From Clostridia bacterium (GTDB lineage Bacteria > Bacillota > Clostridia > Christensenellales > Borkfalkiaceae), in contig JAFTMD010000040.1 of assembly GCA_017452585.1 (NCBI GenBank), forward strand, positions 1 through 55,605: 55,605 nucleotides of DNA, given 5' to 3'. The notes under the pieces are model-generated. The model made no database searches. It saw only the letters and a program-made list of their open reading frames with translations, and was not told the origin of the DNA. Made by a program: the position numbers and the translations under genes. Below are positions 41,954-54,647 of the stretch, one piece after another; the stretch's first letter is position 1, and the number at the start of each line of letters is the position of its first letter.

Positions 41954-42052
41954 TTTCGCAACAGAGAAGAAAAAGCTTGAGTAAAGGCGCCGCCCTTTCT
42001 CCTCACGGGAGGGGAATGGGCGGCGTTAGTCACATTTGCAAAGTGGAAGAAT

Positions 42053-42625
42053 ATGGAATGGATTTTAGCAAGCGCTTCTCCGCGGCGCAAGGAATTATTT
42101 GCGGAACTTGTCAAACAATTTGAAATTCTTCCCTCTCACGCAGAGGAAGTGGTGGAAGGAACGCCCACTCCGGCGGAGCTCGTGCAACAGCTGGCTTGCT
42201 TAAAGGCGAGAGAAGTTGCCCTTCGTCAAGAAGCGCAGGGGAAGGCGGTGCTTGGCTCGGATACGATCGTAGCGCTAGCAGGAGTTGTCCTCGGCAAGCC
42301 CAAGGATGAAGCAGATGCGTTTGCGATGCTCTCCGCCCTTTCGGGAAAAACGCACGAAGTGTATACAGGGGTGTGTATGAATTATCCGACGGCGCAGGGG
42401 GAACGCAGGGAGTTGGTTGACGTTGCCTGCACCAAAGTAACGTTTGTTTCCCTTTCTGAGGAGGAGATTTGGGCGTATATTGCCACGGGCTCTCCAATGG
42501 ATAAGGCGGGGGCTTACGGCATTCAAGATGGAGGACTCGTGAAGGAAATTCAGGGGAGCTACTCCAACGTCGTCGGGTTTCCGTTAGAGCTCTGCAAAGC
42601 GATGCTCGAGAAGATAACTAATTAA
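42053..42625 (+). CDS. maf: Maf-like nucleoside triphosphate pyrophosphatase
   Basis: 190 aa. ILASASPRRKELF, GSDTIV, KAGAYGIQ. Confidence 0.92.
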   Translation: MEWILASASPRRKELFAELVKQFEILPSHAEEVVEGTPTPAELVQQLACLKAREVALRQEAQGKAVLGSDTIVALAGVVLGKPKDEADAFAMLSALSGKTHEVYTGVCMNYPTAQGERRELVDVACTKVTFVSLSEEEIWAYIATGSPMDKAGAYGIQDGGLVKEIQGSYSNVVGFPLELCKAMLEKITN

Positions 42626-42642
42626 CAAAAAATATATCTGAA

Positions 42643-42659
42643 CTCATACCTGGTATGAG
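42643..42659 (-). repeat. degenerate palindromic iterated-motif copy (12/15)
   Basis: CTCATACC-T-GGTATGAG. The reverse complement CATACCAGGTATGAGTTCAGATA aligns with the long consensus. Confidence 0.6.
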
Positions 42660-42675
42660 GGTTTGGAGGAAATGT

Positions 42676-43683
42676 ATGATAAAACTTGCAATTGATTTGG
42701 GTTCGTCCATGACGAAAATTTACCGTGCCGACACGAACAGTGGAGTGGTTTTGGCAGAGCCTTCCTGCGTGGCGATTGTGGGTGCAAATCAAGAGGTAAA
42801 AGCGATTGGGAAAGAGGCGAAAAATCTGATTGGGAGGACTGCAGAATATATGCAGATCGTCTACCCGATCTATGAGGGTGTCATTGTCAATATGCGTTTG
42901 GCGGTGCTGATGTTGCAGGATTTTTTGTCCCGCATTGGCATTCCGAAAACGGCGCTTCGTCATGCGCAAATTTTAATGAGTGTTCCCTGTGGTTTTGGAG
43001 GGCAGTTGCTCACCGATTATGAAACCTTGGTGGAGGAATGTGGATTGAAACGGGTGCGTTTTGTCGAACAACCCTATTTGGGCGCGCTTGGCGGAGGGGC
43101 AATCCTCAGTGAAACGGATCCCATTTTCTGTCTGGATATTGGCGGTGGGGTGTCGAACGCCGCGGTCATTTCCGCCAATGGAATTATTTCCGGGATCGCC
43201 ATCAACGTCGGTGGAAACAATATGGACGCCAACATCATTGCAAAAATAGCCAACACCAATCAGCTTCATATCGGGGCATTGACGGCGGAAAAAATTAAAA
43301 ACGAAATCGGTACGTTATCTTTAAGCGCACTCGGCACGATGGTGGCAGAGGGAAGCTCTACGATCACCTTCCAGCCTTCCTCCACGTCTGTGCAGGCGTC
43401 GGAGTTGACCGAATGTATTCGTGTGTACATCAATAAAATTTTAGAATACGCGGGAGGCGTTTTGTGTGGATTGCCCGCAGAAGTAGCTGCAGCGGTCAAC
43501 CGCAACGGCGTCTACCTTTCCGGTGGGGTGATGAAGATTGCGCACGTTCCGCAGTACATTAGCAGCAAGTTGGGAATGCGCTATCACATCACCGAAGAAC
43601 CGCAGTTTGCGACGGTGCTGGGCGGTGGAGTGCTCCTCCAAGAAAAGGATTTGTTGCGTCGTTTTGCAGGAAAAATGGAATAA
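42676..43683 (+). CDS. MreB/Mbl-like actin-family protein (divergent)
   Basis: ORF track 42655..43683. ATG 42676 (GGAGG 42663-42667). IDLGSSMTKIY, DIGGGVSN, LSGGV phosphate and adenosine motifs. No mreC or mreD follows. Confidence 0.8.
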   Translation: MIKLAIDLGSSMTKIYRADTNSGVVLAEPSCVAIVGANQEVKAIGKEAKNLIGRTAEYMQIVYPIYEGVIVNMRLAVLMLQDFLSRIGIPKTALRHAQILMSVPCGFGGQLLTDYETLVEECGLKRVRFVEQPYLGALGGGAILSETDPIFCLDIGGGVSNAAVISANGIISGIAINVGGNNMDANIIAKIANTNQLHIGALTAEKIKNEIGTLSLSALGTMVAEGSSTITFQPSSTSVQASELTECIRVYINKILEYAGGVLCGLPAEVAAAVNRNGVYLSGGVMKIAHVPQYISSKLGMRYHITEEPQFATVLGGGVLLQEKDLLRRFAGKME

Positions 43684-43702
43684 AATTAAAAAAAATTAGA
43701 AG

Positions 43703-43730
43703 AGTCGTCCGAAATTGGGCGACTTTTTTC
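43703..43730 (+). terminator. terminator of the MreB-like gene
   Basis: GTCGTCC-GAAATT-GGGCGAC followed by TTTTTT. Confidence 0.8.
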
Positions 43731-43872
43731 TCTCGCACGCGCGTGCGTAGGCGCGCGCAAATACGATAATATAAGCTATAAAAAAGATAGTATTTTCCTC
43801 AACTATCGAAAAAATGAATTAAATCAATCGAAAAATTCCATTAAAAAATCCGATTTTTTTTTGAAAAACCCC

Positions 43873-43900
43873 TTGACAAATAAAAAAAATATGCTATAAT
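43873..43900 (+). promoter_or_regulatory. strong promoter of the ORF-less transcription unit
   Basis: Consensus TTGACA (43873-43878), 16-nt spacer, TGc-extended TATAAT (43895-43900). A-rich UP-like tract upstream. Confidence 0.75.
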
Positions 43901-43906
43901 AGAATC

Positions 43907-44548
43907 ACAAAAGGAAATGGACAACACAAAAAGTTGGAAGTTTTCAAATAAAAAAGAGAGGATACTCCAATGAAAATGTAAGGAGTGCCGACAGAGGTCG
44001 GCAAAGTGTCGCAGGGATGCGACGAAAAAATTCACGTAAAGGAGGGTATAAAGAGCGATGATTCCTTCCCATGAAGGGGCGCAAGCCTAAAGAAAAAATG
44101 TAACTTACTAGCAAACCTAGATGAGATGTACTCGGAAGGCGTGACCGCGGAACGATAGAAGCGGCCTACAAAATACAGGAGGTACGCATAAATGATTTGT
44201 TTAGTTGCACAGAAGATTAATACGGAGGAGGGCACTCCAACGAACACGTGACGCTCTTCTACCGACGTGAGTTGGTGGATTTCATAAAATTTGTTAAAGG
44301 AGGTACGAAGGAAGATGATTTTAAAACTTACCACGGTATGGTACTTTAGCAAAGAAGAGAGGAGAGGTATAGTCCAATGAACAATTTCAGTGAGGAATGC
44401 GAATAAGCATAGATCCGTAAAGTGAGCGCGGGAACACCGCAAGGCGAAATTATGTTCGAAAAGAAACGGATGAAAATAATGAAATAGGCATTCTTAAAAC
44501 TTAATAGATCAGCAATCCCCCTGTCGATCGGCAGGGGGTTATCTTTTT
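43907..44548 (+). ncRNA. candidate ~640-nt noncoding (or micropeptide-encoding) transcript; family not recognised
   Basis: Bounded by the promoter above and by the terminator 44517-44548. No + strand ORF of 60 aa or more. Several GNRA-capped hairpins and long-range complementary segments (see findings). Confidence 0.55.
44517..44548 (+). terminator. intrinsic terminator closing the ORF-less unit
   Basis: CCCCCTG-TCGATCG-GCAGGGGG, then TTATCTTTTT. Confidence 0.85.
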
Positions 44549-44623
44549 AATTTGGAGAAAAAGTGGCTGGTTGTGGCGTGTTGTGGTGGTAAAAATTTGA
44601 AGGTGAGGAAGTAGAAGGAAGTA

Positions 44624-44652
44624 TTGACTTTTTTTCTTATTCGTGGTATAAT
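44624..44652 (+). promoter_or_regulatory. promoter of the helicase-sbcD-sbcC-like operon
   Basis: TTGACT (44624-44629), 17-nt spacer, TGG-extended TATAAT (44647-44652). Confidence 0.7.
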
Positions 44653-44702
44653 ACTGATATACAAGCTTGATTTAAGTGGCAGACAAAAAAGGGGTGACGG
44701 TT

Positions 44703-47387
44703 ATGGAACGCAAACCGAATGAGGAGCAACTTCTCGTCATTGAGGAGCTTGCGCACAATTTAATCGTGTTTGCAAGCGCGGGGACGGGGAAAACGTTCAC
44801 CGTGGCAAACCGCGTGGGGGAAATTTTGTCGAAAAATTTGGCAACCCCTGCGCAAATTTTGCTCTTGACCTTTACCACCAAGGCGTGCGAAGAAATGCGC
44901 GCGGATATTCGTCAATACGTGGGGGAATTGGCCAATCATATTCCCATTCACACCATTCACAGTTTTTGTTATCGACTCTTGCGTGAGGAAAATCGTCTGC
45001 GTGGGGATAAGTATTTGGACGCCACCGTCTGTGATGAGATGGACAGCGAGGAGCTTTTAAAAAGTATCCTTGCGTCGCAGTATGCGCTTTGGAAGGGGGA
45101 AGATATAGAATCTTTTGATGAACTTCCCTATCAGCCGTTTGCCATATTTGAGCGAAAAGGGAAGTTGCAACACTTCATCAGCCATTTAAAACACGTGCGC
45201 GAGGAGCAGGGGTTTTATTCGGAAAATGAGGAAGAGGACTATCAAAAAACGTATACATATATCCAAAGCAAGCAGCCCGATTTATACGAGAAATTGTTTA
45301 CCTTTCCAAGCAAAGGAGGGGGGTATGTATGCGATCACGAATTTCAAATGGCAATGGATACCTACGCGGGGCGCTTGGCATTCGCCTATGACGACTATCT
45401 TAAAAAGAGCAATCGGGTAGACTATGACGACTTGATTATCTTCGCTGGCCGTTATCTTCGAGAACCGGAAATTTTGGAAAAGTGGGCCAATCGGTATGCC
45501 TATATTGTCGTGGATGAGATGCAGGACACCAGCTTGCTGGAGTATTCTGTCTTGCGGAAGATTTTTGGGAAAAACAACGTCATGATGTGTGGGGATTTTT
45601 TCCAATCGATCTACGAGTGGCGTGGTTCTCGCCCCGAACAGGTGTTAGGGGCGTTCATGCAGGAATTTTCCCCCAAAGTGTATCATTTTTCCGAAAACTA
45701 CCGTTCGACCAAGCTCTTGACGGAGGCGACGTTTGGCTATTTGCAGGAGACTTATCCCGCGCTGCTCGGCAAATATTGCCCTGAGCAGGTGAAAATCAAT
45801 AGCCGTGAAGAGGGAGAGAAAATTTTACTGCTGGGTTTTGACAATCGGCAGGAAGAGGCGCACCGCATCTATCGGTATTTGAAAAAATGCCTGTCGGAAG
45901 GGCGCACCAATCTTTGCGTGATGGCACGTTCGAATTTTTATCTATCCGCCCTGTTGCGCGCGTTTGAAAGTTTTAATATGGAACAATCTGACGAGGAAAA
46001 AATACGTTTCTTCACAGCGGAAGAGGACTTGCAATTTTATAGAAAACCCGTCGTTAAGGACGTATTGGCAATGCTGAAGCTGTTATTCAATCCCACCGAT
46101 CGAGTTAGCATGGAGCGCATCTCCGAACGATTTGTACGGCAGGTGGGCGCGGTTACGTTAGAGAAAATCCGTATGGAAAATCGGGTGGGCGTGTCGGTTG
46201 CTTCTTTCCTCGACGAGCAGGTGCATAAGTACTTAGACCCCTACCATGTCCTTGTTGAAAGCTTTTTACAGGGTGAAATCGTCGTCTATGACACGGAGAC
46301 GACCGGCTTGGATCTGGGACGTGATGAGATGGTGCAGTTGTCTGCCATTCGCCTGGATAAAGAGGGGAATGTCGCGGAAGTTTTCGATAAAATGATTGTG
46401 CCAACGATACCGATTGGGCAGGGCGCGCAGGAGACGCATGGTTTTGATTTGGAATACATATATGCGCACGGTGGAGTATCCGCCAAGGAAGCGCTTGCGG
46501 AATTTTCCAATTTCGTGCGTGGCAAGACGCTCGTCGGGCATAACAGCATGCGCTTTGATGCGGTGTTGATTGCGCGGCAACTCAAAGAGAACGGTTTGCC
46601 GGCTTTGGAGATAAAAGGGGAGTATGACACGTTGACGATTGCCAAGGAATTTCATGGCAATTTGCCTGATTTCCGATTGTCAACCCTCTGTTTTAAATAT
46701 GACATTGTCAACGAAGCGGCGCACAATGCCTACGGGGACATTGTTGCAACGGGGAAGGTTTTGCGTCATTTTTTGACGGAAGATATCTTGCCCACCATGC
46801 TGGAAAGACAGAAAATTTACGAAAAATATAGGGATAAATTCACTAATTTATATACGTTTTTCAATCAATTTAGGCAGAAATTACGTACTGAGAACGCGGA
46901 AGAATTGCTTTCGTGGCTGATGGAAGGCATGCGCATGAGCAAAAAATGCCAAAATGACGGAGATCGTCGGGCATTGGAATGGCTGTTGGCAAGCTTTCGT
47001 GGTATACCCAAAGAGGAAACGGAGACGGCATTGTTGGCGTTTATCTCCAATGCGGAGCTTTCCTCGGCGCATGCGGAGGAACTCTTCACGCGCAATCGAG
47101 CGATTCCCCTGCTCACCGTGCATCAGGCAAAGGGGTGTGAGTTTGACACCGTCATTTTGGCGGGGGCGGATGACCACAATTTCCCTAGCTTTCGCGCGCA
47201 AGAAGAAGGGCAGGTGGAAGGAGAGAAGAAGCTGTTCTATGTGGCGATTAGTCGCGCGAAGAAACGGCTGATCATGACAAGGGCGTCTTATCAGGGAAGG
47301 GAGAAACTCTATCCCTCGCCCTTTGCGCAAAAACTCCCTGAAAATTGCCTTTGGAAAAATGAAGGCTGGGAAGGGTTTGAAGAATAA
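44703..47387 (+). CDS. UvrD/PcrA-like superfamily-1 helicase with an embedded DEDDh 3'-5' exonuclease domain
   Basis: ORF track 44676..47387. The ATG at 44703 is the more likely start (GGGGTG 8 nt upstream; the GTG at 44676 is too close to the predicted TSS). ASAGTGKT Walker A, VVDEMQDT, YRST. The insert IVVYDTETTGLD ... VGHNSMRFD ... HNAYGDIVAT gives Exo I-III. C-terminal VHQAKGCEFD, YVAISRAK. Confidence 0.88.
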   Translation: MERKPNEEQLLVIEELAHNLIVFASAGTGKTFTVANRVGEILSKNLATPAQILLLTFTTKACEEMRADIRQYVGELANHIPIHTIHSFCYRLLREENRLRGDKYLDATVCDEMDSEELLKSILASQYALWKGEDIESFDELPYQPFAIFERKGKLQHFISHLKHVREEQGFYSENEEEDYQKTYTYIQSKQPDLYEKLFTFPSKGGGYVCDHEFQMAMDTYAGRLAFAYDDYLKKSNRVDYDDLIIFAGRYLREPEILEKWANRYAYIVVDEMQDTSLLEYSVLRKIFGKNNVMMCGDFFQSIYEWRGSRPEQVLGAFMQEFSPKVYHFSENYRSTKLLTEATFGYLQETYPALLGKYCPEQVKINSREEGEKILLLGFDNRQEEAHRIYRYLKKCLSEGRTNLCVMARSNFYLSALLRAFESFNMEQSDEEKIRFFTAEEDLQFYRKPVVKDVLAMLKLLFNPTDRVSMERISERFVRQVGAVTLEKIRMENRVGVSVASFLDEQVHKYLDPYHVLVESFLQGEIVVYDTETTGLDLGRDEMVQLSAIRLDKEGNVAEVFDKMIVPTIPIGQGAQETHGFDLEYIYAHGGVSAKEALAEFSNFVRGKTLVGHNSMRFDAVLIARQLKENGLPALEIKGEYDTLTIAKEFHGNLPDFRLSTLCFKYDIVNEAAHNAYGDIVATGKVLRHFLTEDILPTMLERQKIYEKYRDKFTNLYTFFNQFRQKLRTENAEELLSWLMEGMRMSKKCQNDGDRRALEWLLASFRGIPKEETETALLAFISNAELSSAHAEELFTRNRAIPLLTVHQAKGCEFDTVILAGADDHNFPSFRAQEEGQVEGEKKLFYVAISRAKKRLIMTRASYQGREKLYPSPFAQKLPENCLWKNEGWEGFEE

Positions 47388-47391
47388 AATC

Positions 47392-47415
47392 GGCATACCA
47401 GGTATGCGTTGAGAT
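47392..47415 (+). repeat. iterated motif copy, long palindromic form (14/15 core)
   Basis: GCATAC-CAG-GTATGC-GTTGAGATA, 5 nt after the helicase stop. Confidence 0.9.
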
Positions 47416-47444
47416 ACTTTTTAAGAAAGAAAAAGGAGAAGATT

Positions 47445-48509
47445 ATGATAAAATTTATCCATTGCGCGGATGTGCATTTGGGTTCAAAAATGGAAGCAAA
47501 ACTTCCCAAAAATAAGGTGGAAGAGAGGCGTAGAGAGGTAGCGGATACCTTTCGTCGCATGGTAGAATACGCCAAACAGGAAGGGGTGCGCGCCATTCTT
47601 TTGGTGGGAGACGTGTTTGATTCGGATCGTCCCTTCAAGCGGGATAAAGAATTTTTCTATCAAGTGGTAAAGGGATTTCCCGAAATTGATTTCCTCTATT
47701 TGCGTGGCAATCACGACGGACAGGAGTCGTACACCGAAGGATTGGATAATTTAAAGCTTTTTTCCAACGAGTGGACGAGCTATTCCTACGGTCAGGTGCA
47801 AATCACAGGATTGGAACTTTCTCCTGAAAACTCCCTTTCCATGTACAGCACGCTTTCGTTGGACGCAGGCAAGAAAAACATTCTCATGTTGCATGGCCAG
47901 GTGGCGACGACGGTGGGCAACGAGAAGATCCACGTGGGGAAATTTGCCGAAAAAAATATTGATTATTTGGCGCTTGGTCATATCCATTCGCACAGTGAAA
48001 ATAAGCTGGACGATAGGGGCAGGTATGCGTACAGCGGTTGTTTAGAGGGACGTGGCTTTGATGAATGCGGCGAAAAAGGGTTTGTCCTTTTGGAGGTGGA
48101 TGAGGAGATCAAAAGCACCTTCCACCCCTTCGCGAAACGCAAGATTGAGGAATGGGAAGTGGATATTACGGGCGCGGAAAATGCCTTTTCTGCCTATCAA
48201 CGTGTGAAAGCAACCATTTCCTTCCAAGCCTCCAACCTCTATCGCATTCGTTTAAAGGGCGAGGTTACCTTTGAAAAGGAAAATTTGGAGGAGGATATTG
48301 CGCGCTATTTGGCAGGGGATTGCTATTTTGTGTCCGTCAAGGATAAGAGTTTGCAAAAGATTGATCCGCGCGCGTACGCGGGGGACATTTCCTTAAAGGG
48401 AGAGTTTGTCCGCAGCGTTTTGGAACGGCAGGATTGGGATGACGAGAAAAAGAGCAAGGTGATTGCGCTCGGTTTAAAGGCCTTGGCGCAGAGGGAGTTG
48501 ACGATATGA
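47445..48509 (+). CDS. sbcD: SbcD/Mre11-family nuclease
   Basis: ORF track 47409..48509. ATG 47445 (AGGAG upstream). IHCADVHLG, GDVFD, RGNHD, GHIH metallophosphoesterase motifs. Confidence 0.88.
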   Translation: MIKFIHCADVHLGSKMEAKLPKNKVEERRREVADTFRRMVEYAKQEGVRAILLVGDVFDSDRPFKRDKEFFYQVVKGFPEIDFLYLRGNHDGQESYTEGLDNLKLFSNEWTSYSYGQVQITGLELSPENSLSMYSTLSLDAGKKNILMLHGQVATTVGNEKIHVGKFAEKNIDYLALGHIHSHSENKLDDRGRYAYSGCLEGRGFDECGEKGFVLLEVDEEIKSTFHPFAKRKIEEWEVDITGAENAFSAYQRVKATISFQASNLYRIRLKGEVTFEKENLEEDIARYLAGDCYFVSVKDKSLQKIDPRAYAGDISLKGEFVRSVLERQDWDDEKKSKVIALGLKALAQRELTI

Positions 48510-51052
48510 AACTTTTATCCTATCACATTGAAAATTACGGAAAAATTCACGACCAAGACGGGAATTTTTCAGAGGGAATTACCTCCTATTGCGAGCAGAA
48601 CGGCTTTGGTAAAAGCACCCTCGTTTCCTTTCTAAAGGCGATGTTTTACGGCCTTGCCTCGTACACGGCTGTCACGAAAGGGTTTGTCGATCGCCTGCAT
48701 TACTATCCCTTCAGCGGTGGAAAATTCGGGGGCAATTTAACCTTTTTCTGGGAAGGGGACGTATATAAAATTGAACGTTTTTTTGATAAAAAGAGTGCAA
48801 AAGGGGACGAGTGTATCGTCTATCGAAACGGCGAAGTGTATACGGGTTTTGGAGAGGAAATTGGCAAGGCTGTGTTTGGCTTAGATGAGGAGTCCTTCCA
48901 AAAAACGCTCTTTATCACCGCCGAGGACGTGGAAGTTTCCTCCACGCACAGCATCAATGAGAAATTGAACAGCAGCGTAGAAGGTGGATTGGAAGAAAAC
49001 GACTTTGAAGGGGCGATGGAGGCCCTCGATCGGGCGAGAAAGGATTTGAAAGCCGCCCGTGGCTCTGGTGGTAAAATCAATGAAACCAAGACGGCAATCT
49101 CCGATTTGAGTATACAGTTAAAAAATTATGAAGACATGGAGAGAAGCTTGACGGAGGCGTATATCTCTCGAGAGGGGCTTTCACGGGAGGTTGCTACGCT
49201 AGAGGACGCCTATCAAGAAGCGGGCGCGCGAGGGCTGGTGTTGCAAAAATGGGAAACCTTCGATAGAATGATTGCCAAGAAAAAGGAGCGTGAGGAAACG
49301 CTTGCTAAGTGGCAATTGCGCTATCCCAACGGCTTGCCGAACGACGAGGAACGCAAAGAATTGCAAAAAAACGTCGAAGAAATGGGAAAATTGGAGGAGC
49401 GTTTGCATTCGGTTGCCTTCCCCAGCGGAAAGGAAACGGAACGAAAAATGTTGGAAAGCAGGTTTTCCAATGGTATTCCCAGCCCCACTTTGATGAATAC
49501 AATGCAAGAAAAAATCAATCGTCTGCAAACGGCAAAAGGGGAACGAGAACGTCTGATGAATCAGACTTTGACGGTGGAGGAAACCCTGCTCAAACAGAAA
49601 TTCCAGGATAAAAAACCTACCTTGCAGGATTGGCAGGAGGGGAGGAATTCGTTGGAGGAATACAAGCGAAAACAGGCGCTACTTTCCGAATTGTCTTCCA
49701 AACTGCTGCAACCGAAAAAAGAGGAGAAAAAATTCTCCTTTAAAACGTACGCGTTGGTGATTGGCTGCGCCCTTCTCTGCGCTGGGTTGGGACTTTTCTT
49801 CGTACAGATGATTTTGGGGATTGCGCTTATGGGGAGCGGGGTAGTTTTTTTGGTGGTAAGCCTGCTCATGAAGTCCGTGAACGCAGACATGCCCCGGCCC
49901 AATGGTGATTTTGACGTCGTTTCTTTGCAATCAGAATGTAAGCTTTTAGAGGAAAAACTCCGCACGTTTACCATTCCGTACGGGTATTATAGTGAGGGTG
50001 GCGTCGTGTATGATTTCCTGCAGATGGAGGAAGGATTTAAAAATTATCAGGCGCTTTTGGAAAAGGAAGAGGCCAGTCAGGCGCAGGTGAAGGAAATCAC
50101 CGAGGAAATGGAAACTTTACAACGGGAAATTCAGCTTTTCTTGCATACGTATGGGGAGCGAACGGAAAACTTACAAAGCGGTTTGCAACAGATCTATGTG
50201 GCAATCCAAAGTTATCAGACGTTGACGCAGGATTGGGAAAATTCCAAGCGCGAACAAGCCCAATTAAAAGAGCTTTATCAAAAGGCAAAAGACGAGGTAG
50301 AGAAGTTGCTTCAAAAGTACAATTTCTCTGCGGACGCAGGTACCATGTATGGGTTGAGCGCATTAAATCGGGACATTTTGTCCATCGCGCATACCCGCGC
50401 GGAAGTGGAAAATTTGCGGTTAGAATTGGAAGATTATCAAGAAAAAAACGACTTGGGCGAACGCCCCGAAGAACTGTCCGTATCGGCGCAGGAACTCTAT
50501 CATTCGTTGTCCGAAGCGCGTAATAGATTGCTCGATTGCGATCGCAAAATTGTCGATACCGAGCGGTATGTTGAGAAAAAGGCGGATACGCAAGTGGAAT
50601 TGGCGCTTGCGGAGGAGAAATTGGAAAAACAGCAGGACACGTACGAACTGTTGATGGACACAATGATTGCCATCGAAAATGCAGAACAGCGGTTGAAAGA
50701 TCAGTATATTGCGCCCATTAAGGGGAGATTTTCCGTGTACGTCCAAGCGCTGGAAAAGGTGTTGGACGAGAAGGTGAGCATGGATAAAAACTTCCGCATC
50801 GTCTTTGAACGTGGCGGACAGTCACGTAGTGATCGGTACTTAAGCGCCGGGGAAAAGAGCGTTTGCGCACTCTGTATGCGCTTGGCGCTCATTGACAATA
50901 TGTACGAAGGGGAACAGCCGTTTATTTTGATGGACGATCCATTTGTGCATCTGGACGCGATACATTTAGAGCGCGCCAAAAAGCTATTGCATGAGTTATC
51001 TGAACGCCGTCAGATTTTGTATTTTTGCTGTCATGAAAGTAGAAAAGTTTAA
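48506..51052 (+). CDS. SbcC/Rad50-like AAA ATPase with a central transmembrane hairpin
   Basis: 848 aa. N-terminal QNGFGKST Walker A, long coiled coils, C-terminal LSAGE signature and ILMDDPF Walker B. The coiled-coil apex is replaced by two hydrophobic helices (YALVIGCALLCAGLGLFFVQMILGIALMGSGVVFLVVSLLM, nt ~49746-49872). Confidence 0.85.
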   Translation: MKLLSYHIENYGKIHDQDGNFSEGITSYCEQNGFGKSTLVSFLKAMFYGLASYTAVTKGFVDRLHYYPFSGGKFGGNLTFFWEGDVYKIERFFDKKSAKGDECIVYRNGEVYTGFGEEIGKAVFGLDEESFQKTLFITAEDVEVSSTHSINEKLNSSVEGGLEENDFEGAMEALDRARKDLKAARGSGGKINETKTAISDLSIQLKNYEDMERSLTEAYISREGLSREVATLEDAYQEAGARGLVLQKWETFDRMIAKKKEREETLAKWQLRYPNGLPNDEERKELQKNVEEMGKLEERLHSVAFPSGKETERKMLESRFSNGIPSPTLMNTMQEKINRLQTAKGERERLMNQTLTVEETLLKQKFQDKKPTLQDWQEGRNSLEEYKRKQALLSELSSKLLQPKKEEKKFSFKTYALVIGCALLCAGLGLFFVQMILGIALMGSGVVFLVVSLLMKSVNADMPRPNGDFDVVSLQSECKLLEEKLRTFTIPYGYYSEGGVVYDFLQMEEGFKNYQALLEKEEASQAQVKEITEEMETLQREIQLFLHTYGERTENLQSGLQQIYVAIQSYQTLTQDWENSKREQAQLKELYQKAKDEVEKLLQKYNFSADAGTMYGLSALNRDILSIAHTRAEVENLRLELEDYQEKNDLGERPEELSVSAQELYHSLSEARNRLLDCDRKIVDTERYVEKKADTQVELALAEEKLEKQQDTYELLMDTMIAIENAEQRLKDQYIAPIKGRFSVYVQALEKVLDEKVSMDKNFRIVFERGGQSRSDRYLSAGEKSVCALCMRLALIDNMYEGEQPFILMDDPFVHLDAIHLERAKKLLHELSERRQILYFCCHESRKV
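50343..50357 (+). repeat. iterated motif copy (14/15)
   Basis: CCATGTATGGGTTGA inside the SbcC-like CDS, read as T-M-Y-G-L-S. Confidence 0.8.
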
Positions 51053-52907: not shown

Positions 52908-52982
52908 AAAGTGCCGTTTTCACGATTGGTCGGTAAAGGATGTATGACTGTTTGATCAACCCAAGATCCATTTATGCTATAC

Positions 52983-53026
52983 ACAAAAACGGGGGCAGGT
53001 TTTGCGTTCAACGCATACCTGCCCCC
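52983..53026 (-). terminator. glyQS terminator containing an iterated-motif copy
   Basis: Minus strand: GGGGGCAGG-TATGCGTTGAACGCAAAA-CCTGCCCCC followed by GTTTTTGT. The motif copy is at 53008-53021 (13/15). Confidence 0.85.
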
Positions 53027-53045
53027 GTCATTTTATAATTTTTAC

Positions 53046-54446
53046 TTAGAAATCAATCTTTTCTTCAATGTAACGAATGGCGTCTTCCACGCTCAAACGA
53101 ATCTGTTCCATGCTGTCGCGGTCGCGAATGGTAACCGCTCCGTTTTCAAGGGTGTCAAAGTCGATGGTTACGCAGAAGGGAGTGCCGATTTCGTCCTGAC
53201 GGCGATAACGTTTCCCGATGGAACCCGTAACGTCGTAGGTCGTGGAAAATCTCTTTGCCATCTGGGTGTAAATCTCATCTGCCTTTTCAGAAAGGTTTTT
53301 CTGAAGGGGAAGCACCGCGCACTTGTAGGGCGCAAGGAAGGGATGCAAGTGAAGAACGGTACGAACGTCGTTCTTTTCTGCATTGACCACTTCTTCGTCA
53401 TAAGCGTCGGTAAGGAATGCCAATACGACGCGGTCAGCCCCCAAGGAGGGTTCGACAACGTAGGGAACGTAACGTTCGTTCGTGATGGGATCCAAATAAT
53501 TGATAGGCTTGCCACATTCTTTTGCGTGTTGATTGAGGTCGTAGTCCGTTCTGTCTGCAATCCCCCAAAGTTCCCCCCAACCGAATGCGAAGTTGTATTC
53601 AAAGTCGGTGGTAGCCTTGGAATAGAAGCAAAGTTCTTCGGGAGAATGGTCACGAAGGTGCAAGTTTTCTTCTTTCATGCCGAGGGACAAAAGCCAGTTT
53701 TTGCAGTAGTCCTTCCAGTATGCGAACCATTCCAAATCGGTGCCCGGTTTGCAGAAGAATTCAAGTTCCATCTGTTCAAATTCACGGGTACGGAAGGTAA
53801 AGTTACCGGGGGTGATTTCGTTACGGAAAGATTTACCGATTTGCGCGATCCCGAAAGGAACTTTCATACGGGTGGAGCGTTGTACGTTTTCAAAGTTGAC
53901 AAAGATACCCTGCGCCGTTTCGGGACGAAGGTAAACCGTGTTTGCGGAATCTTCCGTAACCCCTTGGAAGGTTTTGAACATGAGGTTGAATTTACGGATA
54001 GAGGTGAAGTTGTGGTTGCCACAGATGGGGCAGACGAGCTGATATTCTTCAATGAACTTTTCCAGTTCTTCATTGCTCATGCTTTCCACTTTCGTATCCA
54101 TACCCTTCTTCGCCACGTAGTTTTCTACGAGGTTGTCAGCGCGATGACGGGCTTTACAGCTCTTACAGTCCATCAAAGGATCGGAAAATCCGCCAAGGTG
54201 ACCACTTGCCTGCCAGGTACGTGTGTTCATCAAAATAGCACAGTCAACACCCGTGTTGTAGGGGTTTTCCTGTACGAATTTCTTCCACCAAGCTTTTTTG
54301 ACGTTGTTTTTGAGTTCTACACCCAAAGGACCATAATCCCACGTGTTTGCAAGACCACCGTAGATTTCACTGCCGGGGAAGATGAACCCTCTGTTTTTAC
54401 AAAGGGAAACGAGTTTTTCCATCGTTACAGCTCTCTTTTCTGCCAT
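53046..54446 (-). CDS. glyQS: glycine--tRNA ligase (homodimeric GlyQS type)
   Basis: 466 aa. [48 protein letters not shown], class II motifs. Confidence 0.96.
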
Positions 54447-54475
54447 AATATATCTCCTAATTCTTTTAAATTCTT

Positions 54476-54647
54476 GGCTCTGTCACCCTTTCCGTTTGAT
54501 TTTTGACGGAAAAATCCTGTGAAATACTGCGCTTTTTGCTCAGTTACAGATATTTGCATTCTGCGCCTTCACAAAAAACTTGTCTTTCTTGTATTTTTCT
54601 CGTCAAAACGCAAAATCTGTTAATCAAACGTTAAATATGACATCGCC
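54476..54647 (+). repeat. B-family palindromic repeat, long nested form, diverged (172 bp)
   Basis: GGCTCTGTCACC..GTTTGATTTTTGACGGAAAAAT...ATTTTTCTCGTCAA...AATCAAACG...GACATCGCC. Collinear with 39956-40136. Lies inside the glyQS leader in antisense orientation. Confidence 0.75.

Follow-up and report, generated by a model that had tools for sequence, protein, structure and literature searches.

Dual-function RNAs such as RNAIII/hld, SgrS/SgrT, SR1/SR1P and rnTrpL/peTrpL are stand-alone structured transcripts that have their own promoter and terminator and contain small open reading frames (ORFs). To our knowledge, no dual-function RNA has been described with more than one small ORF. In the passages reached by phrase searches of a review (PMC12612679), no dual-function RNA with several small ORFs appeared. 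Here we describe a unit at positions 43873-44548 of a 55,605-nucleotide stretch of DNA from an uncultured Clostridia bacterium (contig JAFTMD010000040.1 of assembly GCA_017452585.1; this whole stretch is referred to as the window). Like the dual-function RNAs, which also occur in Bacillota, the unit appears to be a free-standing structured transcript with small ORFs, and it has a promoter and a terminator of its own, on both sequence and conservation. By analogy, it may work most like this group of RNAs. It differs from them in having four to six ORFs of 2-21 codons that are arranged in tandem paralogous modules, in that several of these ORFs overlap covarying helices, and in showing no sequence homology to any of them. 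From the comparison of homologues, we lean towards reading the unit as an independent RNA gene whose transcript is both structured and translated, with the two functionally coupled.

A second group of described RNAs, OLE, ROOL, GOLLD and raiA, resembles the unit in size class, in having many covarying helices and GNRA-type loops, and in coming from Bacillota or from gut and rumen. A first-pass annotation, made from the letters of the stretch, had placed the unit near OLE, ROOL and GOLLD because of its size, and no evidence of kinship beyond size was found. The covariance models of all four RNAs were run with cmscan, and none matched even at E <= 10. The unit is also modular, and its length varies by gain and loss of modules. 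We know of no description of these four RNAs with conserved mini-cistrons made of a Shine-Dalgarno (SD) sequence and an ATG. With cmscan, the whole window had 0 matches to Rfam 15 at gathering scores, and the region 43650-44720 at E <= 10 gave terminator-like hits alone, at 17-22 bits. ARAGORN called no tRNA or tmRNA in the window. These results agree with the first-pass statement that hallmarks of RNase P, tmRNA, 6S and SRP are lacking. Nothing was found in the literature on RNAs of Candidatus Scatosoma, one of the groups that carry the unit, and no RNA with such an architecture was found in the literature on dual-function or large ornate RNAs. The unit is a new RNA family that is absent from Rfam.

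From promoter to terminator, the unit is about 640 nucleotides (nt) long and has no long ORF. Its two ends are the following:

43873..43900, + strand: sigma-70-type promoter, TTGACA, 16 nt, TGcTATAAT
44517..44548, + strand: intrinsic terminator, CCCCCTGTC-GATC-GGCAGGGGG followed by a T run

Both had been predicted in the first pass, and both are conserved across the aligned species. No promoter-like site in 42000-46000 is better than this promoter, which with the TG extension scores 12/12. TTGACA is conserved in all aligned homologues, being complete in 55/58, while the other 3 rows begin one base inside it. TGnTATAAT is found at fixed spacing in 58/58. Given this promoter, transcription is predicted to start near 43907. 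The terminator stem (44517-44538) has 9 G+C-rich base pairs (bp). All homologues have a terminator hairpin and T run at this place, and the sequences of the stems differ. The longest + strand ORF between promoter and terminator encodes 33 amino acids (aa), in line with the earlier observation that no + strand ORF reaches 60 aa. The transcript had also been called purine-rich, and its purine content is 62.9%, compared to a mean of 53.5% for the window, which ranks 3rd among 1100 sliding windows. The minimum free energy of the unit is -171.4 kcal/mol (z = -4.76 against dinucleotide shuffles).

To compare the unit between species, 80 loci from species-representative genomes were fetched via the MreB protein, whose gene lies next to the unit. 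All 80 belong to Candidatus Scatosoma or to unnamed Clostridia metagenome-assembled genomes from ruminant, chicken and human gut. A search with the unit by nhmmer found a homologue in 63/80 loci, and about 64-67 loci had one once the structural models described below were added. Judged by these matches, the unit is conserved in about 60 species of uncultured gut Clostridia. There is one copy per locus. The homologues are 426-1043 nt long, with conserved 5' and 3' parts and a variable middle. The unit always lies just past mreB, a position that is partly explained by fetching the loci through MreB. Other close relatives whose loci extend several kb past mreB, including L006, L007, L045 and L046 (MreB 67-77% identical), have no unit within 6 kb of mreB, and in such relatives the unit is either elsewhere in the genome or lost.

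The first-pass annotation had proposed checking which genes flank the homologues, and the pattern is mreB on one side and a variable gene on the other. The far-side gene is a helicase in 6 loci and SbcD in 3. Elsewhere it is an FtsH-like protease, a lipoprotein or another protein. When up to three ORFs of at least 100 aa were taken 3' of the unit in each locus, they fell into more than 60 clusters, some of them on the opposite strand. In some loci the opposite-strand gene is one that we take, by eye from its sequence, to be glycyl-tRNA synthetase. At least 8 loci have the unit in the inverted orientation with respect to mreB.

This context bears on the possibility that the unit acts in cis, as a leader or attenuator with leader peptides, to control read-through into the downstream helicase and SbcCD genes. 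Leader-peptide attenuators and ribosome-actuated switches (the trp/his, erm and cat leaders) are similar to the unit in their very short ORFs, strong SDs and conserved residues near the end of the ORF, and in them, as proposed here, translation melts downstream pairing. In this genome, too, short ORFs are followed by a terminator and the helicase gene lies 3' on the same strand. However, the helicase has its own promoter past the terminator (44624-44652, 11/12 with TG, at the place predicted in the first pass), in most species the downstream gene is a different one or lies on the opposite strand, and the orientation of the unit with respect to mreB is not fixed. No conserved downstream regulated gene was found in the loci compared. 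The unit also differs from attenuators in having its own terminator, ORFs in series and a large junction domain, which attenuators lack. Since the far-side gene varies and both orientations occur, the unit is an independent gene rather than a helicase leader, and we regard an attenuator as very improbable.

An origin from a mobile element was considered and rejected, as no homologues were found in phage records, plasmid records or viral contigs. By blastn, neither the 50,697 phage records nor the 72,556 plasmid records contained a match to the unit. Viral contigs had 16 matches to the pattern TCCAATGAAC-N97-127-AMAAYTRAATA, none of them homologous by nhmmer. The same pattern was too loose for a metagenome scan, where it picked up at least 120 stretches with 2 true homologues (by nhmmer) among the matches listed.

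The first-pass annotation had labelled the unit as non-coding. On the comparison of homologues, that label is not supported in its simple form, and the annotation missed four to six mini-ORFs, each behind a module of SD plus ATG. After the promoter, these modules are the most conserved blocks of the unit. In the window, the mini-ORFs are:

43970-43981, + strand: mini-ORF-A, MKM and stop; SD GAGAGG at 43956-61
44058-44090, + strand: mini-ORF-B, MIPSHEGAQA and stop; SD AAAGGAGGG at 44038-46
44192-44251, + strand: mini-ORF-C, MICLVAQKINTEEGTPTNT and stop; SD CAGGAGGT at 44176-83
44315-44380, + strand: mini-ORF-D, MILKLTTVWYFSKEERRGIVQ and stop; SD AAAGGAGGT at 44296-304
44377-44406, + strand: mini-ORF-E, MNNFSEECE and stop; SD AGGAGAGG at 44360-67

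From the pattern of changes between species, the mini-ORFs appear to be translated. ORF-D is present in 54/58 homologues with the consensus M-x6-8-RYFNKE(D)KAR and stop. The distance from its ATG to the TAC codon is 21, 24 or 27 nt and is in frame in 51/51 sequences. The stretch between the ATG and the motif contains 0 stops in frame 0, compared to 30 and 15 in frames 1 and 2. Within RYFNKE there are synonymous changes (AGG/CGG, TAC/TAT, TTT/TTC and AAA/AAG) as well as conservative substitutions, with Y for F and H or S for N. In about 43/58 homologues, ORF-C reads M-x(n)-(E/G)DTPTY(T) and stop. Its ATG-to-motif distance is 15, 18, 24, 27, 39, 42, 45, 48, 51 or 66 nt, ten classes that are all multiples of three (3n). 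This holds for 33/35 sequences, and in the 2 exceptions the wrong upstream ATG was picked. ORF-B is found in 53/58 homologues and has exactly 10 codons in 49/53, with the consensus MIPSHxEAxA and with TAA (41), TGA (11) or TAG (1) as the stop. The ATGs of ORF-A and ORF-E are conserved in all 58 aligned species. ORF-E is 9-11 codons long in 58/58, and TCCAATGAAC is near-invariant. ORF-A has its ATG within CCRATG and stops after 2-3 codons in 58/58. Its stop can be TAA, TAG or TGA, and its peptide is not conserved. Single elements like ORF-A, with a strong SD near the 5' end followed by an ORF of 2-3 codons, are known as the lambda bar minigenes and as the STAB-SD and ermC-type ribosome-dependent mRNA stabilisers of Bacillus. 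By analogy, it is likely that ribosome binding, rather than the peptide, is what matters in ORF-A. The known elements occur one at a time, within phage DNA or at the start of an mRNA, in contrast to the conserved multi-module RNA described here.

As a control, distances between the ORFs were compared. Those from A to B, B to D, D to E and E to the 3' block are uniform modulo 3. There is therefore no conserved long ORF on either strand. This is one of several results against a protein gene, or a decayed pseudogene, on the minus strand, where ORFs of 136 and 64 aa are found. Long stop-free stretches do recur across homologues (median 115 aa), because the purine-rich + strand depletes stops from the minus strand. 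No frame is kept from block to block, Pfam gave no match even at E <= 1, and the promoter and terminator are on the + strand. A minus-strand gene is hardly credible, and the first-pass view of these two ORFs as noise was sound.

The strong SDs raise a different possibility, which is that the RNA is purely non-coding and that its SD and AUG elements are binding or structural motifs, as in a sponge for 30S subunits or of the CsrA type. CsrB/RsmZ-type sponges have repeated purine-rich GGA sites like those of the unit, one of which lies in the loop of hairpin P3 (below). The repeated GGAGG motifs and the strong nucleotide invariance at synonymous sites would suit such an RNA, and by analogy so would the P3 loop AGGGAU, which we take to fit the ARGGAU core of high-affinity CsrA ligands. 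The counts separate the two kinds of site. GGAGG occurs 5 times in the unit compared to 1.1 expected from dinucleotide shuffles (1/500 shuffles reach 5), whereas GGA occurs 19 times compared to 17.3 +/- 2.7 and is not enriched. Enrichment of GGAGG without enrichment of GGA points to ribosomes rather than to a GGA-binding protein. A CsrB/RsmZ-type sponge was rejected as a candidate since GGA is not above shuffles and only P3 displays GGA in a loop. In addition, the sites in the unit are complete SDs that precede ATGs and conserved frames, and the nine-base match of AAAGGAGGT is better explained by the 16S anti-SD than by a GGA-binding protein. Indels in ORF-C and ORF-D come only in multiples of three and leave no in-frame stops, whereas the spacers between ORFs are random modulo 3. 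No CsrA signature was seen in the window or the first 80 fetched loci, which is a weak test. Taken with these results, a purely non-coding RNA seems quite unlikely.

Across the two domains, nine helices are supported by comparison of the homologues, and all of them covary. The 3' domain and the block that follows it have the following features:

44393..44495, + strand: 3' domain, in which helix E closes helix J and J closes a three-way junction with hairpins K and L
44393-400/44488-95, + strand: helix E, enclosing helix J
44413-18/44466-71, + strand: helix J, closing the three-way junction
44428-31/44437-40, + strand: hairpin K, in the three-way junction
44445-48/44455-58, + strand: hairpin L, in the three-way junction
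44496..44508, + strand: conserved, apparently unpaired block, consensus ACAACUGAAUA, here AAAACUUAAUAGA

When the 3' half was aligned by MAFFT alone, RNAalifold predicted no pairs because the variable helices were misaligned. A covariance model (R1) was built from a three-sequence seed with a hand-drawn structure, and cmsearch aligned 64 full-length matches (alignment A4). In these 64 sequences, 91.9% of the cells are paired, both sides change in 20/22 pairs, and 318 cells are compensatory. None of 500 shuffles reached the paired percentage, the number of compensatory cells or the covariation score (0/500), and when the partner was slid by 1-3 columns pairing fell to 28-42%. Single-sequence folds of the inner segment gave the three-way junction in 18/19 species, from differing sequences. 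A test of helix E that used a fixed pairing offset failed since its register slides by 1-2 nt. The arms were then placed solely by the invariant motifs that flank them, and duplex energies were compared with a permutation across species. A species' own arms form a duplex of -11.6 kcal/mol, compared to -7.5 for arms from different species, and 0/10000 permutations were as good. The block ACAACUGAAUA is near-invariant in alignment A1 and has no partner in an unbiased scan of column pairs.

For the 5' domain, model R2 and alignment A8 were used. Its features, together with those of the middle of the unit, are:

43913..43945, + strand: P1, 5' hairpin, outer helix 43913-17/43941-45, inner helix 43921-25/43933-37, A-rich loop
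43987..44002, + strand: P2 hairpin, GCCGA(C)-loop-(G)TCGGC
44008..44023, + strand: P3 hairpin, AGGGAY loop (GGGA, a GNRA-type tetraloop)
44077..44088, + strand: P4 hairpin, within ORF-B, covering codons 7-10 and the T of the stop codon
44096..44290, + strand: variable middle module, with SD CAGGAGGT, mini-ORF-C and a P2-like hairpin
44262-75, + strand: P2-like hairpin of the middle module, CCGAC-GTGA-GTTGG

In the R2 alignment, 91.6% of the cells are paired, with 112 compensatory cells and changes on both sides in 18/25 pairs. No shuffle (0/500) reached any of the five measures observed. P2 is paired in 98.0% of cells, with both-side changes in 4/5 pairs. The values for P3 are 95.5% and 5/6 pairs, with a near-invariant loop, and those for P4 are 91.6% and 4/4 pairs. 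The outer helix of P1 is 90.4% paired and the inner helix 81.6%, with compensatory changes in 5/10 pairs. With both domains together, compensatory changes occur in 38/47 pairs. The top hits of the unbiased column-pair scan, which did not cover the terminator, were E, P2, J, P4 and P3, and it found no convincing helix that links the 5' and 3' domains.

The first-pass description of a self-contained structured transcription unit is borne out by this conservation and by the many covarying helices, and some of its individual hairpins fared better than others. P2 (43986-44003), P3 (44008-44023) and P4 (GGC-GCAA-GCC) are conserved and covary, as does the long-range pair ATCCGT/ACGGAT, which is helix J. 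Two further hairpins are specific to this genome: CCTTC/GAAGG is paired in 49.5% of cells across species, and CC-GCAA-GG overlaps the 3' arm of hairpin K. The other proposed long-range pair, GGAGTGCC with GGCACTCC (43982-89/44231-38), is likewise specific to this genome and was rejected as a conserved feature. Its energy is -7.08 with arms of the same species and -6.89 with arms of different species, and 2223/10000 permutations were as good. A pseudoknot in which the GGGA of the P3 loop pairs with a UCCC in ORF-B is not supported either, as the loop stays constant where UCCC changes. Pairing of the P3 loop with UCCUU is possible, but invariant.

The middle module is absent in the short forms (426-520 nt). 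A hairpin downstream of ORF-C recurs among homologues with altered sequences, and a P2-like and sometimes a P3-like hairpin is repeated ahead of ORF-D. R2 gave weaker second hits inside the same element in about 20 loci, as at L061:3674-3996 (minus strand), L041:7718-7913 and L063:2978-3156. These second hits, which fall in the middle module, indicate internal duplication. Locus L061 has two 5'-type modules in tandem. Short-form relatives have fused mini-ORFs, such as MIPYSSVYGYFNKEGKER, and paralogous mini-ORFs that join a MIP(S/Y) start to a YFNK end. Evidently, modules have been duplicated, lost and recombined. The RNA looks like a tandem array of related modules, which explains the variation in its length.

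Coding sequence and structure overlap at several places. P4 sits in ORF-B and takes in the first base of its stop codon. Also in ORF-B, UUCCUU at 44062-67 (codons 2-4, aUU CCU Ucc) is complementary to the SD of ORF-B itself. This pairing is present in at least 85% of sequences and is nearly invariant. In ORF-D, the Y-F-N codons (GUACUUUAAC) could pair with the sequences on either side of this ORF's SD (GUUAAAG..GUAC), and the complementarity is invariant. The arms of the candidate helix GUUAAAG/CUUUAAC around the SD of ORF-D do not vary in most species, and the variants in L032 and L033 are not compensatory. The group of L043 has ACGAAG/CUUCGU in place of this pairing. The stop codon of ORF-D usually comes directly after the GAGG that serves ORF-E, and here the two ORFs overlap as ATGA. 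The 5' strand of helix E is made up of codons 6-8 of ORF-E, and its covariation with the 3' strand comes at the cost of the ORF-E peptide, with at least 12 different pairs of arms. Many synonymous positions in the motifs never vary, which means that the RNA itself is constrained too.

These overlaps are relevant to whether the unit is a plain polycistronic micropeptide operon, in which the peptides alone matter and the helices are stabilisers, processing sites or controls on initiation. The conserved frames and synonymous changes of ORF-C and ORF-D would be expected of such an operon, and the MIP(S/Y)-start and YFNK-end paralogues suggest a peptide family that evolved by duplication. In contrast, the peptides of ORF-A and ORF-E are not conserved even though their SDs, ATGs and lengths are, and helix E covaries by altering codons of ORF-E. 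The covarying three-way junction (about 110 nt) and the conserved unpaired block lie outside every ORF. Peptides of 9-20 residues with 4-6 conserved positions would also be unusual as folded effectors. We consider a plain micropeptide operon unlikely.

In the coupled reading that we prefer, the steps would be as follows. A strong sigma-A-type promoter would produce a transcript that opens with hairpin P1. P1 is followed by modules, each made of one or more hairpins, a near-perfect SD, an ATG and a mini-ORF of 2-21 codons, and the last parts of the transcript are the covarying three-way-junction domain and the intrinsic terminator. Ribosomes would load on the mini-ORFs, and each ORF would take them into a strand that would otherwise be paired. 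For ORF-B these strands would be P4 and the tract complementary to the SD of ORF-B, for ORF-D the segment complementary to the flanks of the ORF-D SD, and for ORF-E the 5' strand of helix E. Because the ORFs enter paired strands, translation would unwind and remodel the RNA. The stop codon of ORF-D, which falls within the SD and start of ORF-E or immediately ahead of them, would couple these two ORFs. The RNA would then be open while it is translated and folded while it is not, switching from one form to the other, and an activity at the RNA level (of the 3' domain and the ACAACUGAAUA block) would be tied to the translation status of the cell. ORF-A may chiefly protect the 5' end. Ribosome-dependent stabilisers protect 5' ends in Bacillus. 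MIPSH, DTPTY and RYFNKE may also serve as micropeptides or nascent chains.

Several points weigh against this reading. Synonymous sites in the motifs often never vary (ACT, ACG, CCT and AAC), and so the apparent conservation of the peptides could largely be constraint at the RNA level. The codons for DTPT resemble an SD-start module, GAGGATACTCC-R-AYG. The independent indel events behind the 3n pattern are fewer than the sequences that display it. The pairings that would sequester the SDs are near-invariant and thus carry no covariation signal. The case for translation comes from sequence comparison in organisms that are uncultured, and the switching mechanism, like any function in trans, is something that we infer.

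A more far-reaching version is that the unit belongs to a class of ribosome-actuated RNAs with serial mini-cistrons as inputs. Such an RNA would be a free-standing sensor of translational capacity, a timer or a sponge, without a gene regulated in cis. Ribosomes would open the SD-sequestering hairpins and then the three-way-junction domain, one after the other. This version is possible, although we hold it to be doubtful. If translation does gate the fold, the unit would be a free-standing form of the leader-peptide principle and a natural system for studying how ribosomes remodel RNA. The clade that carries the unit is narrow and uncultured. Against this stand strong comparative evidence and an unusual architecture, and the unit adds a well-supported, unclassified RNA family from abundant, uncultured Clostridia of gut and rumen. 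With its tandem module paralogues, its helices that covary through coding sequence and its ORFs of as few as two codons that are yet conserved, the unit blurs the boundary between an mRNA and a structured non-coding RNA. Annotation pipelines and RNA-motif hunters would both misfile such an RNA.

In the window, the upstream neighbours of the unit are genes for Ppx/GppA, Maf and MreB, and the downstream neighbours are genes for a UvrD-type helicase, SbcD and SbcC. The maf and mreB genes follow each other directly (42053-43683). In many Bacillota, mreC and mreD follow mreB. Here mreB ends in a terminator without mreC or mreD after it, and the RNA unit occupies the position 3' of mreB, as it does in about 60 species. 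The mreB terminator had been placed at about 43703-43730 in the first pass. The promoter and terminator scan had not listed it, but it folds at -19.8 kcal/mol and is flanked by A and T runs. With the A run before and the T run after the hairpin (43695-43730), it could terminate transcription in both directions. Between this terminator and the promoter of the unit lies a G+C-rich near-palindrome, CGCACGCGCGTGCG-TAGG-CGCGCGCA, at 43731-43762 (-17.3 kcal/mol). Its sole Rfam look-alike was BSnc120, on the minus strand, at a non-significant E = 0.056. Between the terminator of the unit and the helicase promoter, 44556-44620 consists of G/T-rich GTGGCTGGTTGTGGCGTGTTGTGGTGG followed by purine-rich GAAGGTGAGGAAGTAGAAGGAAG, and this tract has no conservation in the aligned flanks. 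Further downstream, 52974-54506 is an ORF of 510 aa with no Pfam match at E <= 0.001. The helicase gene itself (44703-47387) encodes a UvrD/Rep-type protein with an RNase T/DnaQ-like exonuclease domain inserted at residues 527-687. It is followed by SbcD-like (47409-48509) and SbcC-like (48506-51052) genes, with which it forms a compact helicase-nuclease and SbcCD cluster.

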